Of a stretch of DNA of 64,000 nucleotides, positions 16,431 to 39,192 are shown in pieces. The notes beneath the pieces are model-generated. The model saw only the letters and a program-made list of their open reading frames with translations, made no database searches and had not been told where the DNA came from. Made by a program: the position numbers and the translations under genes. The stretch is from an uncultured bacterium (GTDB lineage: Bacteria > Chlamydiota > Chlamydiia > Chlamydiales > SM23-39): assembly GCA_963716985.1 (NCBI GenBank), contig OY970323.1, positions 1,632,001-1,696,000 of the forward strand, read 5' to 3'. Position 1 is the first letter of the stretch; every line of letters starts with the position of its first letter.

Positions 16431-18089
16431 AGAATCGAGAGCTTCCTTTGTTCTTTTTTGAATATACTCACTCTTCAAAGACATGACCCTTTCTTTGAAT
16501 GCAGACAGGTGAAAAGTAGAAAGGGAAAAGCGCTCAATGCCAAGACCTAAAAAAATGGGAAGATAGTCGGCCGATGCGGCCAATTCTCCGCAGAGAATCA
16601 CGGGTTTTTTGGCCAGTTCTGCTTGCTTGATGACCATCTGCAGAAGCCGCAAAAGACTCAGCGGAATATTTTTGGACAAACCCATCGCCTGTCTGCGATC
16701 GAACCCAAAAAGATATTGCACGAGATCGTTTGTTCCAATCGACAAAAAATCCACCTCTTTTACGATGCGATCCGCCATCAGGGCTGCTGCCGGCACTTCA
16801 ATCATCGATCCGATGTGCAGTTTCGTATTTTGTATAAGGATTCTTTTTTTCAATTCTCTTATGCGCGCTTTGACCTCAAGAATTTCTGCCACATCGGAGA
16901 CAAATGGAAGTAAAAGATGCACCACGCCCGCTTGCGATGCCTCCAAAATTGCGAGAAGCTGATCCTCCAAAATCTTGGGATGCTTCAAAAGAAAACGGAT
17001 GCCCCGATCCGCCTCCAATGATCGCTTGCCAAAGGGAGTCTTTTCTATTTGAGAAAAGAGATCGCTCTTATCAGCTCCCACATCAAAGAGGCGGATGATG
17101 AATGGCTTTGGGGCTAATTTTTTGGCCAGCTCGGTGTAGATTTGGACCTGTCTTGCAAGGCCGGGCACGCCTTTTTCGGCAAGGAAGAGAAACTCGGTCC
17201 GAAAAATACCTACCCCTGCAATCTGATCGTTTGCAACCTTATCGAGATCGCGGATCGTTTCAATATTGACATAGCATTCGACCTTTTGATTCTCCGGCAT
17301 TTTGCGAAAAACCTCTTTTCTCAATTTTTCTTTTTCTAAAATTTTGATCTTTTCTTCCATGAGCTTCAACGTTTTCTTAGAGGGATTGCATACCACCTCT
17401 CCGTTGGTTGCATCGACGAGAATTTCTTCAATCTTCAGATTTTGCACGCGCGCAAAATCAATTTCCGAAACGTAAGGGATGCTGCGCGATCGTGCAATAA
17501 TTGCTGCATGAGAATCGTAGCCGCCGCGCGCAGTCACAAAAGCAAGAACATCCTCCCCTCCTGCGCCCATGGCATCGGAAGGAAAAATTTCCTCCGCGCA
17601 GATGACAACTTTTTTCAGATCATTGTTCTTTTCGGGAAGAGTTTTCAGATTTTTCATTATTCTCTGGGCCACATCCACAACATCTTGAACCCTTTGTTGG
17701 AAAAATAGATCTTCCATTTGATGGAATCGATTTTGATACTCTTCAATCACATTTTCAAATGCAGCCTCCGTCCTCTGCTGGCAGACGCGAATCCTCTCCT
17801 CCACCATTTCTACGATGGCGGGATCAAAGAGCAGCTCTAAATGGGTTTGCAAGATCTTTTGCACAGGAGAGGAGCTTTTCTCTTCGCAAGGCCTGCATAG
17901 GCTTGTCAAATCTTGGCGGCTGCGAGAAAGGGCAAAACGGTAACGAAGGATTTCCCGATCGACCTCTTTTTTTTGCAAAACGCTTTTCCGATTCATCGAT
18001 CTGCTCTTCGAAAGAAAAAAAATCTTGCCCCATGCAATGCCTGCGCTGAGCGAAACGCCCTTTAAGCGGATCTCCTTATTCGCTTCCAT
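16425..18089 (-). CDS. ptsI: PEP-protein phosphotransferase (PTS enzyme I)
   Basis: SHAAIIARS, GVGIFRTEFLF, MIEVPAAA, SIGTNDLVQY, CGELA. Confidence 0.93.
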   Translation of the reverse strand: MEANKEIRLKGVSLSAGIAWGKIFFLSKSRSMNRKSVLQKKEVDREILRYRFALSRSRQDLTSLCRPCEEKSSSPVQKILQTHLELLFDPAIVEMVEERIRVCQQRTEAAFENVIEEYQNRFHQMEDLFFQQRVQDVVDVAQRIMKNLKTLPEKNNDLKKVVICAEEIFPSDAMGAGGEDVLAFVTARGGYDSHAAIIARSRSIPYVSEIDFARVQNLKIEEILVDATNGEVVCNPSKKTLKLMEEKIKILEKEKLRKEVFRKMPENQKVECYVNIETIRDLDKVANDQIAGVGIFRTEFLFLAEKGVPGLARQVQIYTELAKKLAPKPFIIRLFDVGADKSDLFSQIEKTPFGKRSLEADRGIRFLLKHPKILEDQLLAILEASQAGVVHLLLPFVSDVAEILEVKARIRELKKRILIQNTKLHIGSMIEVPAAALMADRIVKEVDFLSIGTNDLVQYLFGFDRRQAMGLSKNIPLSLLRLLQMVIKQAELAKKPVILCGELAASADYLPIFLGLGIERFSLSTFHLSAFKERVMSLKSEYIQKRTKEALDSL

Positions 18090-18357
18090 ATTCCTCCTCA
18101 AAACCATTCTCGAAAGCCCCGGCCAAAAGCTCCATGATCTCTAGCGCATCCTCTCCATCGACTGCAACTTCGATTGCAGCGCCTTTCTTCGCCACCATCA
18201 TCAAGAGATTCACGATAGATCTGGCATTCACCGTCTCATTTTTATAGGTAAAAAAAACTAAAGAGCAGCAATCGCGCAAAAGCCTGGTAATGAAAGCCGC
18301 AGGGCGCATGTGCAGCCCCAACTCATTTTTGATCGTTAAAATTCGTACAATTTTCAC
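18076..18357 (-). CDS. ptsH: HPr phosphocarrier
   Basis: NELGLHMRPAA (His15), NARSI (Ser46). Confidence 0.93.
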   Translation of the reverse strand: MKIVRILTIKNELGLHMRPAAFITRLLRDCCSLVFFTYKNETVNARSIVNLLMMVAKKGAAIEVAVDGEDALEIMELLAGAFENGFEEEYGSE

Positions 18358-37321: not shown

Positions 37322-37669
37322 TTACCTCTCCATGGGTTTGAGTGGTTTGAATTCCAAAGTCTCTAAAATCTTTTCCGTTCGCATCGTCATAAATCGAAGA
37401 AGATCTTCATGAAGCTGATAATCCTTGATCAGTTCTTTATGCTTGAGTGAGGGAAGGGAAAAATAGAGGAGATAGTAAAAGCCTTCTCTCTTGCCTCTGA
37501 TTTCATAAGCGAGGCGTCTTCTTCCTTGATCATGAGTCTTATGGATCTCGCCCCCTCTTTCGACAATGCCGTTTGTGATCTTATCCAAAGCTCTCTTTCT
37601 AGCTTCTTCACTAAGGGTTGCATTAATAATGTACATTCCCTCGTAAAGATACTTTCTTTCTTTTTTCAT
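37322..37669 (-). CDS. rpsF: 30S ribosomal protein S6
   Basis: [30 protein letters not shown] abuts the mobile-element end. Confidence 0.96.
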
Positions 37670-37738
37670 CCTATTGACAGCGCGGAAACCCACTCCTTTA
37701 GGGGTGGGAGGAAGCACTGCTCCTTTGTTGTTAAGTTT

Positions 37739-37762
37739 AAAAACGGGGGGATTTCTCCCCCC
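37739..37762 (-). terminator. Terminator-like hairpin inside the element
   Basis: GGGGGGA-GAAA-TCCCCCC-G-TTTTT on the minus strand. Confidence 0.55.
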
Positions 37763-38017
37763 TAGCAGTTACCTGCAATCTCCGATTTCCCGGGTAAAGT
37801 TCCCCTCGCCAAAGTTATGGAGCGGTTTATATGTTAGCAGCACTGGTTTAACCCGTAAGCCTGTTTAACCACTAACCGCAGGATCCAGAACTGGGGTGGC
37901 ATTCCGGAGTGCCTATATATTCGCTCCTAACGTAGTCTCTAAATACGCAAGAGACTGAGGCTGGTCAACTTCAGGCCTGATTTCTCAAGCCTTTCCCTTC
38001 AGGGAAGGGTGGTTGAC
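37740..38017 (-). ncRNA. IscB omega-RNA (HEARO) scaffold
   Basis: Hallmark order GTCAAC..GTTGACCAGCCTCAG..CTACGTT..GGCACTCCGGAATGC..CCCAGTTCTGG..TTAAACAG..CAGTGC..AAACC..AACTTTGGCGAGGGGAAC..TTAC, with paired helices AGTCTCT/AGAGACT and GGAGCG/CGCTCC; 3' end approximate. Confidence 0.88.
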
Positions 38018-38036
38018 TCGTCATTCCTCTTTCTAA

Positions 38037-38627
38037 CTAAATTTTTTTACGAGACCTATTGGCTCGATTCATTGCTTGCACAACTCCCTCTCTCAGCCAT
38101 AATGCAATGATCTCTACAGCCTCTTCCAAAATCCATGGAAGCGCTCTTTCCTCATCTTGGCTAAAGGGAGCCAACACATATTCCTCCAAACTTCCCTCTT
38201 CTCGCGGTCCGATGCCTAAGCGAAGCCTCGCATATGCATCACATCCTAAATGCATTTCAACACTTTGCAGACCCTTGTGGCCCCCGCACCCGCTATGTTC
38301 TTTCAGTCGAAATTCCCCAAAAGAGATATCCACATCATCCACAACCACAAGTAGCCGGCTCATCTCGATCTTAAAATAATCCATTCCACATCGGACCGCC
38401 TCCCCGCTCAAGTTCATGTAGGTCTCGGGCACGAGCAGAAAAACATTTTTTTCTTCGATTTTTCCGTTGGCTTGCAATCCCTTCAACTTGGGGGATTTTT
38501 TAAAACTCCAACCCCATTTCTTTGCAAAAGCTCCTACTGCCAGAAACCCCATATTGTGGCGCGTCTTCTCATACTCTTTTCCAGGGTTGCCAAGTCCTAT
38601 AATCAAGTAGTTAGAAGAAATCACCAT
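38037..38627 (-). CDS. pth: Peptidyl-tRNA hydrolase
   Basis: GLGNPG..TRHNMGF, PETYMNLSG, GGHKGL, RLRLGIG. Confidence 0.96.
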   Translation of the reverse strand: MVISSNYLIIGLGNPGKEYEKTRHNMGFLAVGAFAKKWGWSFKKSPKLKGLQANGKIEEKNVFLLVPETYMNLSGEAVRCGMDYFKIEMSRLLVVVDDVDISFGEFRLKEHSGCGGHKGLQSVEMHLGCDAYARLRLGIGPREEGSLEEYVLAPFSQDEERALPWILEEAVEIIALWLREGVVQAMNRANRSRKKI

Positions 38628-38628
38628 C

Positions 38629-39192
38629 TCATGCACGCGGCTTTGTCACAAGAGCAACGACTTCTTGCATCTGTGCTAAGGACTTTACGCCTTTTGGAAG
38701 GACAATGTCTTTGACTCTTTTTGTATGTCCCAATTCTAAATGGGCCACATCGATCTGAAACGCTCCAGGAATGTCCTTTGGCAGACAGCTCACCCTAATC
38801 GATCGCATCGTCTGTCTCAAGAGTCCGCCCACCTTCACGCCAACGCAAGCCTCTTCCCCAACGCATTCGATAGGGACGGCAACTCTAACTTCCTTTTTTG
38901 GGGAAAGTTTTTCAAAATCCAGATGGATCACTTCATAACTCGTCACATCATATTGAATTTCTTTCACGATCGCCGAAAACGTTTCCTTTTCACTTTTCAA
39001 AGTAAACACGGTCGTCGACAAACGTCCCTTTTGCATCTCGTTCAAAATTTTATTAAAATCATGAGCGCTGAGCGAAATATTCTCATTTTCTTGGCCCTTA
39101 GCATAAATGATCGCTGGAATAGATCCTTGAATGCGAAGCTTTTTAATATCGCTTTTACCGGCTCTTTTTCGGTGAAATATTGCAAGTTCCAT
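38629..39192 (-). CDS. rplY: 50S ribosomal protein L25/CTC
   Basis: GSIPAIIY, HLDF, GVKVGG, CLPKDIP; between prs and pth. Confidence 0.94.
   Translation of the reverse strand: MELAIFHRKRAGKSDIKKLRIQGSIPAIIYAKGQENENISLSAHDFNKILNEMQKGRLSTTVFTLKSEKETFSAIVKEIQYDVTSYEVIHLDFEKLSPKKEVRVAVPIECVGEEACVGVKVGGLLRQTMRSIRVSCLPKDIPGAFQIDVAHLELGHTKRVKDIVLPKGVKSLAQMQEVVALVTKPRA

Follow-up and report, generated by a model that had tools for sequence, protein, structure and literature searches.

The window analysed here is a 64,000-nt stretch of DNA from an uncultured bacterium of the Chlamydiales (assembly GCA_963716985.1, contig OY970323.1, positions 1,632,001 to 1,696,000 of the forward strand), and our subject is a 348-bp element on its minus strand that carries an IscB-type omega-RNA scaffold and abuts the start codon of rpsF, the gene for ribosomal protein S6. 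Specifically, the stop codon of pth (TAG, 38039-38037) is followed by 19 nt, TTAGAAAGAGGAATGACGA (38036-38018), and then by the element (38017..37670), which opens with GTCAAC at 38017 and closes with GCGCTGTCAATAGG at 37670; directly 3′ of it stands ATGAAAAAAGAA, the start of rpsF (37669 onward). The element separates the old rpsF Shine-Dalgarno sequence (SD; AGAGGA) from the rpsF ATG and displaces this native SD 348 bp upstream. A first-pass annotation, made from the letters alone, had described a protein-free IscB omega-RNA insert at this place, and its location and description prove correct to the base. The features of the locus are listed below, all on the minus strand; statements on Meers et al. 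2023 (bioRxiv 10.1101/2023.03.14.532601) and on Kapitonov, Makarova and Koonin 2016 (PMC4810608), here and throughout, refer to the accessible portions of these sources.

38037..38636, minus strand: pth (peptidyl-tRNA hydrolase), the co-oriented upstream gene, an open reading frame (ORF) whose orthologues adjoin rpsF in 29 relatives' loci
38018..38033, minus strand: predicted guide segment of the omega RNA, the 16-nt flank GAAAGAGGAATGACGA, placed by the published IscB architecture (Meers et al. 2023); it holds the displaced native SD AGAGGA (38030-38025)
37670..38017, minus strand: the whole element, a non-autonomous ISC/IS605-type element (an omega-RNA-bearing palindrome-associated transposable element, PATE); full-length relatives are 83-84% identical (blastn), and the ends are set by the empty sites of sister copies
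37794..38017, minus strand: omega-RNA scaffold (HEARO, RF02033; cmscan), whose first helix and hairpin (38009-37990) are also the guide-adjacent transposon end (right end, RE, in the TnpA convention)
37739..37762, minus strand: GNRA-capped G+C hairpin GGGGGGA-GAAA-TCCCCCC, then G and five T (terminator scan, fold, copy alignment), in the place of the iscB start of full elements
37720..37726, minus strand: element-borne SD-like AAAGGAG, facing outward to rpsF, unpaired in the centroid fold, with GGAG conserved here among aligned ends
37677..37720, minus strand: two-tier hairpin of the end next to the target-adjacent motif (TAM), the TAM-side end (left end, LE, in the TnpA convention), with an outer 7-bp stem (37720-37714/37683-37677) and an inner imperfect hairpin (37708-37689), supported by covariation
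37670..37676, minus strand: 7-nt tail CAATAGG from the outer stem to the host ATG, the element's last bases, a spacer of near-constant length among aligned ends
37665..37669, minus strand: ATGAA, the target and TAM, which is also the rpsF start codon and the first two bases of codon 2 (ends in the genome; TTCAT of Meers et al. 2023; N|ATGA of Kapitonov et al. 2016)
37322..37669, minus strand: rpsF (ribosomal protein S6, 115 aa), an ORF; in most of the 29 relatives' loci the alignment with the S6 orthologue begins at residue 1
37316-37029 and 37021-36539, minus strand: rpsR and rplI, ORFs downstream of rpsF

The guide-adjacent part of the element is an omega RNA of IscB, the RNA-guided nuclease ancestral to Cas9. 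In particular, cmscan matches 38017..37794 on the minus strand to Rfam HEARO (RF02033) over the full model (positions 1-211), with 142.8 bits against a gathering score of 83 bits and an E-value of 8.9e-30 for the window, and the scaffold starts at the element's first base, 38017. About 30 conserved bases lie 3′ of the model end, before the G+C hairpin; the element RNA runs about 50 nt past the model into this hairpin and its T-run, after which an A-rich stretch ends in AAAGGAG (37726-37720). Sequence and fold place subterminal imperfect hairpins at both ends of the element, with no terminal inverted repeats: CCCTTCCC-TGAA-GGGAAAGG on the guide side (38009-37990) and CCCACCCC-TAAA-GGAGTGGG on the TAM side (37708-37689). 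The ORF list of the block contains no IscB or TnpA ORF inside the 348 bp. The covariance-model scan, the ORFs, and the two hairpins thus bear out what the first-pass annotation had proposed on all three points, namely an IscB omega/HEARO RNA, the absence of iscB and tnpA, and a hairpin at each terminus.

The host genome (G000; closed, 2,067,739 bp (2.07 Mb), Rhabdochlamydiaceae-like) contains 11 HEARO matches, nine of them above the cut-off and the window copy scoring highest. Two of the matches precede intact 464-aa frames (G000 166419.. and 1818870..) with RRXRR and HNH domains (Pfam); these frames match the NCBIfam equivalog NF040563 (RNA-guided endonuclease IscB) with 437.7 bits against a cut-off of 175, and their nearest relatives among named genomes are found in Rhabdochlamydiaceae and Chlamydiia metagenome-assembled genomes, which bears out the probable chlamydia of the first-pass annotation. 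The window scaffold aligns with the two IscB-linked scaffolds at 86% identity over 257 nt and 85% over 262 nt (blastn), and no cognate IscB or IsrB gene lies directly downstream of the window scaffold, the IscB genes being encoded elsewhere in G000. Searching G000 with the window element (blastn) returned two full IscB elements of about 1.63 kb each, about seven guide-RNA-only elements of 345-424 bp, and nine end-only relics that keep just the last 60-130 nt beside an ATG; two truncated HEARO fragments lack the TAM-side end. The solo copies share 83-91% identity; between the TAM-side parts of the two IscB elements, identity is 97% over 700 nt. A PF01797 search of G000 found two intact and one broken IS200-type tnpA genes. 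The end hairpin of this resident IS200, CCACTGG-TTTGA-CCAGTGG, differs from the ISC hairpins, and the search returned no TnpA with ends of the ISC type. The first-pass annotation had proposed a search of the genome for iscB, tnpA, and further copies flanked by ATGA, and G000 holds all of them: the two intact IscB genes, the IS200-type tnpA genes, and about 20 copies and relics.

The guide-RNA-only copies share an internal organization. A hairpin and T-run replace the iscB start in six of the seven, and the seventh (c10) retains a piece of iscB. In several genera, the SD of guide-RNA-only ends comes after a T-run and an AAC-rich stretch, in that order; a hairpin before this T-run is seen in the G000 copies and, by sequence reading, in a relative (G050). 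Because this layout recurs in several genera and the hairpin in both G000 and G050, the guide-RNA-only elements seem to form a separate lineage rather than to be local deletions.

Comparison with relatives recovers the uninterrupted locus. In a same-genus genome (G001) the site is empty and reads pth-TAG-AGAGGTGCAACAGG-ATGAAAAC, with a pth-rpsF gap of about 18 nt against 371 nt in G000; the gap is about 5-97 nt in 26 of the 29 relatives' loci and 206, 288, and 327 nt in the other three, whose genomes are without any HEARO match. The rpsF spacers of G000 and G001 diverge in sequence, and this pair alone leaves the ends unfixed to the base; they are fixed to the base by three other guide-RNA-only copies, whose orthologous sites in G001 are empty and have near-identical flanks, as in gaatggttcaaaca|ATGAAAGATC in G001 versus gaatggtttcaaca-element-ATGAAAGATC in G000. 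For all four copies tested, the one at rpsF and those at the genes of G000 1491718, 35759, and 1003649, G001 has an exact empty site. All four insertions lie at N|ATGAA on a native start codon, with no target-site duplication, and in three of the four a recognisable native SD is stranded upstream of the element (AGAGGA, GGAGG, and AAGGTG). The exact, duplication-free insertion between the native SD and the rpsF ATG, as first read from the sequence, is confirmed by the sequence and the empty sites in G001.

As to identity and insertion history, it is almost certain that the window copy is a non-autonomous IS200/IS605 element of the ISC (IscB) branch that has lost iscB and kept both ends, the omega-RNA gene, and a terminator-like hairpin. 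The element type, its ATGA target, and trans-acting omega-RNA PATEs are already published, and the window copy joins this published class. Specifically, Meers et al. 2023 report that the right end of the transposon gives rise to the IscB omega scaffold and that the guide lies beyond it, that the TAM of Geobacillus stearothermophilus IscB is TTCAT (ATGAA on the omega-RNA strand), that such elements tend to co-orient with the upstream gene, and that PATEs "often encode omega RNAs", which need use in trans; Kapitonov et al. 2016 report IscB-encoding ISC transposons with subterminal hairpins, no target duplication, and an N|ATGA target in several families. Like the GstIscB element of G. stearothermophilus and the PATEs, the window copy has IS605-type ends, a scaffold on the guide-adjacent end, an outside guide, the same TAM, and the same orientation to the upstream gene; unlike the GstIscB system, it resides in a chlamydia, and a terminator-like hairpin with a GNRA cap replaces iscB. 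It also resembles ISC1-1_MA, ISC2-1_HM, and ISC2-1_MS (Kapitonov et al. 2016) in being non-autonomous, in its subterminal hairpins, lack of duplication, ATGA just downstream, and 5′-GT terminus, whereas those elements encode IscB or IsrB and the window element neither. Set against HEARO (RF02033), it is a full-length match but has no adjacent HNH/IscB ORF. The word HEARO is absent from Weinberg 2010 (PMC2864571).

The family lands on start codons. ATGAA stands directly after 17 of the 18 TAM-side ends in G000, and an ORF of at least 79 aa opens at the abutting ATG in 16 of the 18; the two exceptions precede a presumed tRNA gene (sequence reading) and a 28-aa frame. On a crude gene map of G000 (1,687 ORFs of at least 100 aa) there are 7,252 ATGAA sites, 915 of them outside genes, and ATGAA is the candidate start of 268-426 genes. 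On this map a non-disruptive ATGAA site coincides with a gene start with a probability of at most about 0.32, compared with 16/18 observed (binomial P 9e-7). The placement of the rpsF start codon within an ATGAA TAM, first suggested from the window alone, agrees with these ends and with the published TTCAT (Meers et al. 2023) and N|ATGA (Kapitonov et al. 2016) motifs. In five relatives, a covariance model of the TAM-side end (R1) detected another 42 ends. Of the 28 examined, ATGA comes next in 21, and 17 lead into ORFs, among them fmt, kdsA, mdh, and nusA (named by reading N-termini).

Two of the relatives' insertions lie in ribosomal-protein operons. In G050 (G050:C2; 1363-1740 of locus L051), a guide-RNA-only element with hairpin, T-run, and AGGAGG lies between rplW and rplB in the S10 operon, and the native GGAA-type SD is stranded upstream of it. 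In a genome of another genus of the same family (G023:C13), a guide-RNA-only HEARO (17895-18141) starts 16 nt past rpsF (17543-17878), with its end at 18170-18249 and, by sequence reading, rpsR as the following gene; this is the same operon as in the window, entered by an independent insertion. The G023 element belongs to a divergent subfamily, and its target motif may differ from ATGAA, since its end, ...CACAGAGAGG, precedes ATAAAAATTATG.

Start-codon landing of IscB elements was not found stated in the literature searched, including the accessible text of Kapitonov et al. 2016 and Meers et al. 2023. In particular, "start codon" and "ribosom" have no occurrences (0) in Kapitonov et al. 2016 (PMC4810608), "ATGA" and "start codon" have none (0) in Goltsman 2022 (PMC9755519) and in a 2026 OMEGA review (PMC13565253), and neither host-gene start codons nor an outward-facing SD in the TAM-side end are mentioned in the accessible part of Meers et al. 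2023.

One site in G000 (G000:C1:1002778-1003649) holds an end-only relic on the minus strand and a complete guide-RNA-only element on the plus strand, back to back and about 400 nt apart, each abutting the start codon of a divergent gene: the relic precedes a small signal-peptide ORF, and the gene after the complete element reads like V-ATPase subunit E. The IscB loci of Desulfofundulus, Moorella, and Dictyobacter have GTGA in place of ATGA and may match the GT|GA target class of Kapitonov et al. 2016.

The insertion leaves no SD at a workable distance in the last bases before the rpsF ATG (CAATAGG), and rpsF would stay translatable through the outward-facing SD of the TAM-side end itself (AAAGGAG). 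The order of parts in the fold is that of a hairpin-bridged ribosome-binding site (RBS): AAAGGAG, a 7-bp outer stem around an inner hairpin, 7 nt, and AUG. Once folded, the two-tier hairpin would leave SD and AUG separated by 7 nt and the width of one helix, yielding a split RBS; in the centroid fold AAAGGAG is single-stranded and the hairpin closed. The host has a canonical anti-SD, and SD cores precede 30% of crude gene starts against a background of 11%. In phage T4 genes 38 and 25, a distant SD and start codon are joined by a stable intervening hairpin. The layout at rpsF is alike in that SD and start codon lie too far apart and are bridged by a hairpin, and it differs in that SD and hairpin come from a transposon end and would, in this putative function, serve any host gene beyond it.

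An alignment of 30 TAM-side ends (18 taken from G000, the remaining 12 from seven further genera) shows GGAG immediately 5′ of the outer stem in 27 ends and a spacer of 7-9 nt between stem foot and ATG in 26. Both helices covary, with compensatory changes in 13 of 15 pairs and 87.5% of cells paired; 0 of 500 shuffles and none of six slid registers come near the observed pairing. On the mRNA-sense strand the outer helix has 30 G.T wobbles versus 3 A.C, 23 of the 30 being contributed by one pair (26-73), without which the count is 7 versus 2, a margin too small to tell the strand. Sequence reading extends the layout beyond chlamydiae: AGGAGG (or a near variant), outer stem, inner hairpin, and ATGA follow one another in 11 of 13 bacterial IscB loci of other phyla (Desulfobacterota, Firmicutes, Planctomycetota, and Chloroflexota), and in 11 of the 15 IscB loci listed the ATG or GTG begins a frame of at least 60 aa; both Thermoplasmata loci read (2/2) lack the SD-like motif. 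The IscB stop codon falls in the hairpin loop in some elements, including those of G000, and IscB ends far upstream in others, so that GGAG is not merely a coding constraint.

The end-only relics, in which the rest of the element has gone, give a further comparison. Across the nine relics the SD core retains 34 of 36 bases (94%) and the outer stem 58 of 63 pairs (92%), and the inner hairpin retains 51 of 72 pairs (71%), compared with 85% paired in complete elements. This pattern, with SD core and outer stem kept while the inner hairpin decays, is suggestive of a working RBS, at the scale of nine sequences. No relic conserved across species emerged, the sole end-only relic in G001 preceding a gene without a G000 orthologue.

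The same motifs could instead be determinants of transposition only, with GGAG and the outer stem forming part of the TnpA substrate and rpsF initiating independently of an SD, or from a standby site, at an AUG in an A-rich, weakly structured context. GGAG is conserved together with other end motifs across phyla; most inner-hairpin mismatches are A.C, equivalent to G.T on the TnpA top strand (30 versus 10), so that constraints at the DNA level shape the end; and SD cores at only about 30% of crude gene starts imply that many genes may initiate without one. Against a purely transpositional role, the motif is a canonical SD directed at a host ATG, with a set distance of 7-9 nt past the stem; it persists as GGAG in immobile relics while the inner hairpin decays, is missing from the two archaeal ends read, and lies on the inner side of the hairpins. 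We know of no TnpA contact on that side for IS608. We consider this alternative unlikely, though it retains appreciable weight.

A second alternative uses AAAGGAG as a conventional SD, with S6 made as a 131-aa protein from a GTG at 37717 (minus strand) within the element. This GTG shares the reading frame of rpsF and comes right after GGAG, and the window copy reads GCAGTGC where most copies read GCAGCGC, a C-to-T change in the outer stem. The GGAG-GTG spacing of 2 nt is, however, too short for SD-directed initiation in bacteria, the GTG occurs in only 2 of the 30 ends, and S6 orthologues start at the MKK... position; an extended S6 is very improbable. Weighing these alternatives, we lean slightly toward an element-borne SD that drives rpsF translation as a portable split RBS.

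A full-text search found no paper on an RBS in the end of an IscB element; the supplementary end alignments of Kapitonov et al. 2016 and Meers et al. 2023 may show the GGAG. The portable RBS of the family's end and of its relics is possibly a new point.

Where the ATGA target was a stop/start overlap, the frame of the upstream gene extends by six codons into the guide-side end, and a TAA or TGA in the loop of the end hairpin closes it. At G000:C1:166141-166159 and 1491365-1491383, the upstream frames stop at the loop TAA and the proteins acquire the tail ...STTPP, as in a 406-aa ORF ending in KSTTPP; the gene that ends at 1491383 in G000 ends in CAATGA in G001. In the window copy, a TGA in the same frame occupies this position of the hairpin loop. 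Judged from sequence, the elements would thus leave both neighbouring genes translatable. Whether ATGA-targeting ISC elements are built for operon junctions more generally, with a portable hairpin-bridged RBS on the TAM side and a loop stop codon on the guide side that let them occupy the starts of essential genes, and with an end of about 60 nt staying on as a working RBS after decay, we judge to be evenly balanced. If so, such elements, including guide-RNA-only ones, could occupy the starts of rpsF here and of rplB, nusA, rpsR, fmt, and kdsA in relatives, host transcription would be used to make guides, and the nine relics in G000 would be decayed ends kept as the working RBSs of their genes.

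Following the published architecture, the guide of the window omega RNA is inferred to be the 16 nt of the old rpsF RBS region, GAAAGAGGAATGACGA (38033-38018). This sequence has no exact match in the genome other than itself, and no site in G000 with up to two mismatches to it precedes ATGAA, leaving no secondary guide targets. Because the guide has no other genomic match followed by ATGAA, the element-free joint would be its only conceivable target, as in the published homing model. The element inserts without duplication at N|ATGAA, here the rpsF start codon. pth is co-oriented and ends 20 nt upstream of the element, consistent with read-in transcription, and read-through from pth would furnish the omega RNA with its 5′ guide segment; the 3′ end of the solo omega RNA is likely the GNRA-capped hairpin (37762-37739). 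The omega RNA, together with either intact IscB made elsewhere in the genome, would recognize the element-free joint GAAAGAGGAATGACGA|ATGAA and nothing else; after excision by a Y1 transposase the ribonucleoprotein would cut this joint, and recombination with the sister chromosome would restore the element. We give even odds to use of the window omega RNA by IscB in trans.

The first-pass annotation had raised, beside a selfish module, a domesticated one. On a regulatory reading, the omega RNA and a dead or nicking IscB would control the rpsF operon or another locus. The setting invites such a reading, the insert being in a core ribosomal-protein operon with the RBS region as its guide. It is not supported: both IscB proteins match the full equivalog model and have RRXRR and HNH, the guide has no second target, the element itself fills the guide's own site, which hence offers none, the sister species is without the insert, and about 20 related selfish copies and relics precede unrelated genes. 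We find no evidence of domestication in these sequences and regard it as extremely improbable.

The best overall explanation, and in our judgement a probable one, is a guide-RNA-only ISC element at rpsF that homes by IscB and carries its own split RBS. Several observations weigh against this explanation. Present-day mobility of the ISC copies is not supported, because the resident IS200 TnpA has an unlike end hairpin, and the solo copies have diverged to 83-91% identity. On the side of translation, GGAG is kept across phyla along with the end motifs TTCCTC and GTTTCC and could be a transposition determinant, it lies inside the C-terminal coding region of IscB in full elements, and the relic comparison has the small base of nine sequences. 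As to transcription, a simple scan of 37500-38800 gave no sigma-70-like promoter, and the terminator-like hairpin with its five T stands between pth and rpsF-rpsR-rplI. Transcription would have to pass this hairpin at least in part to reach rpsF, which implies either partial termination or an unseen promoter inside the element; in the conserved TTTTAAC-N-TTAAC stretch between T-run and SD, no convincing -35/-10 pair is seen by eye.

Some of these points would also suit an inert fossil, neither used by IscB nor moved by a transposase, that persists as its precise removal is unlikely. The lack of a TnpA with matching ends in the genome search, the divergence of the solo copies, and the many copies that are relics all fit such a fossil. 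The window copy is nonetheless the genome's best-scoring HEARO, matched at every model position, and the 97% identity of the two IscB elements over 700 nt suggests fairly recent copying; on balance a fossil seems doubtful.

The element itself is an ordinary, though very clean, member of its published class; the locus is of value as a test case: an essential ribosomal-protein gene has its SD 348 bp away and a terminator-like hairpin in front, and the organism lives; the same holds for rplB in the relative. If GGAG and the hairpin keep such genes translated, this would explain how the ISC family colonises start codons at low cost, and also why short end relics persist before genes, as transposon ends exapted as RBSs.

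G000 also contains other mobile DNA. Five near-identical copies (99.8-100%) of a 1.92-kb repeat (G000:C1:755458-757378, 1328491, 729777, 1122659, and 1970..1972 kb) encode a 452-aa ORF, read as a group II intron reverse transcriptase/maturase, and two of these copies directly precede the two intact IS200 tnpA genes. A shorter repeat, about 103 nt long and 94-100% identical between copies (for example G000:C1:758160-758262), is dispersed over more than 30 places, sometimes as tandem pairs; it has no relation to the ISC ends and resembles a further miniature mobile element.

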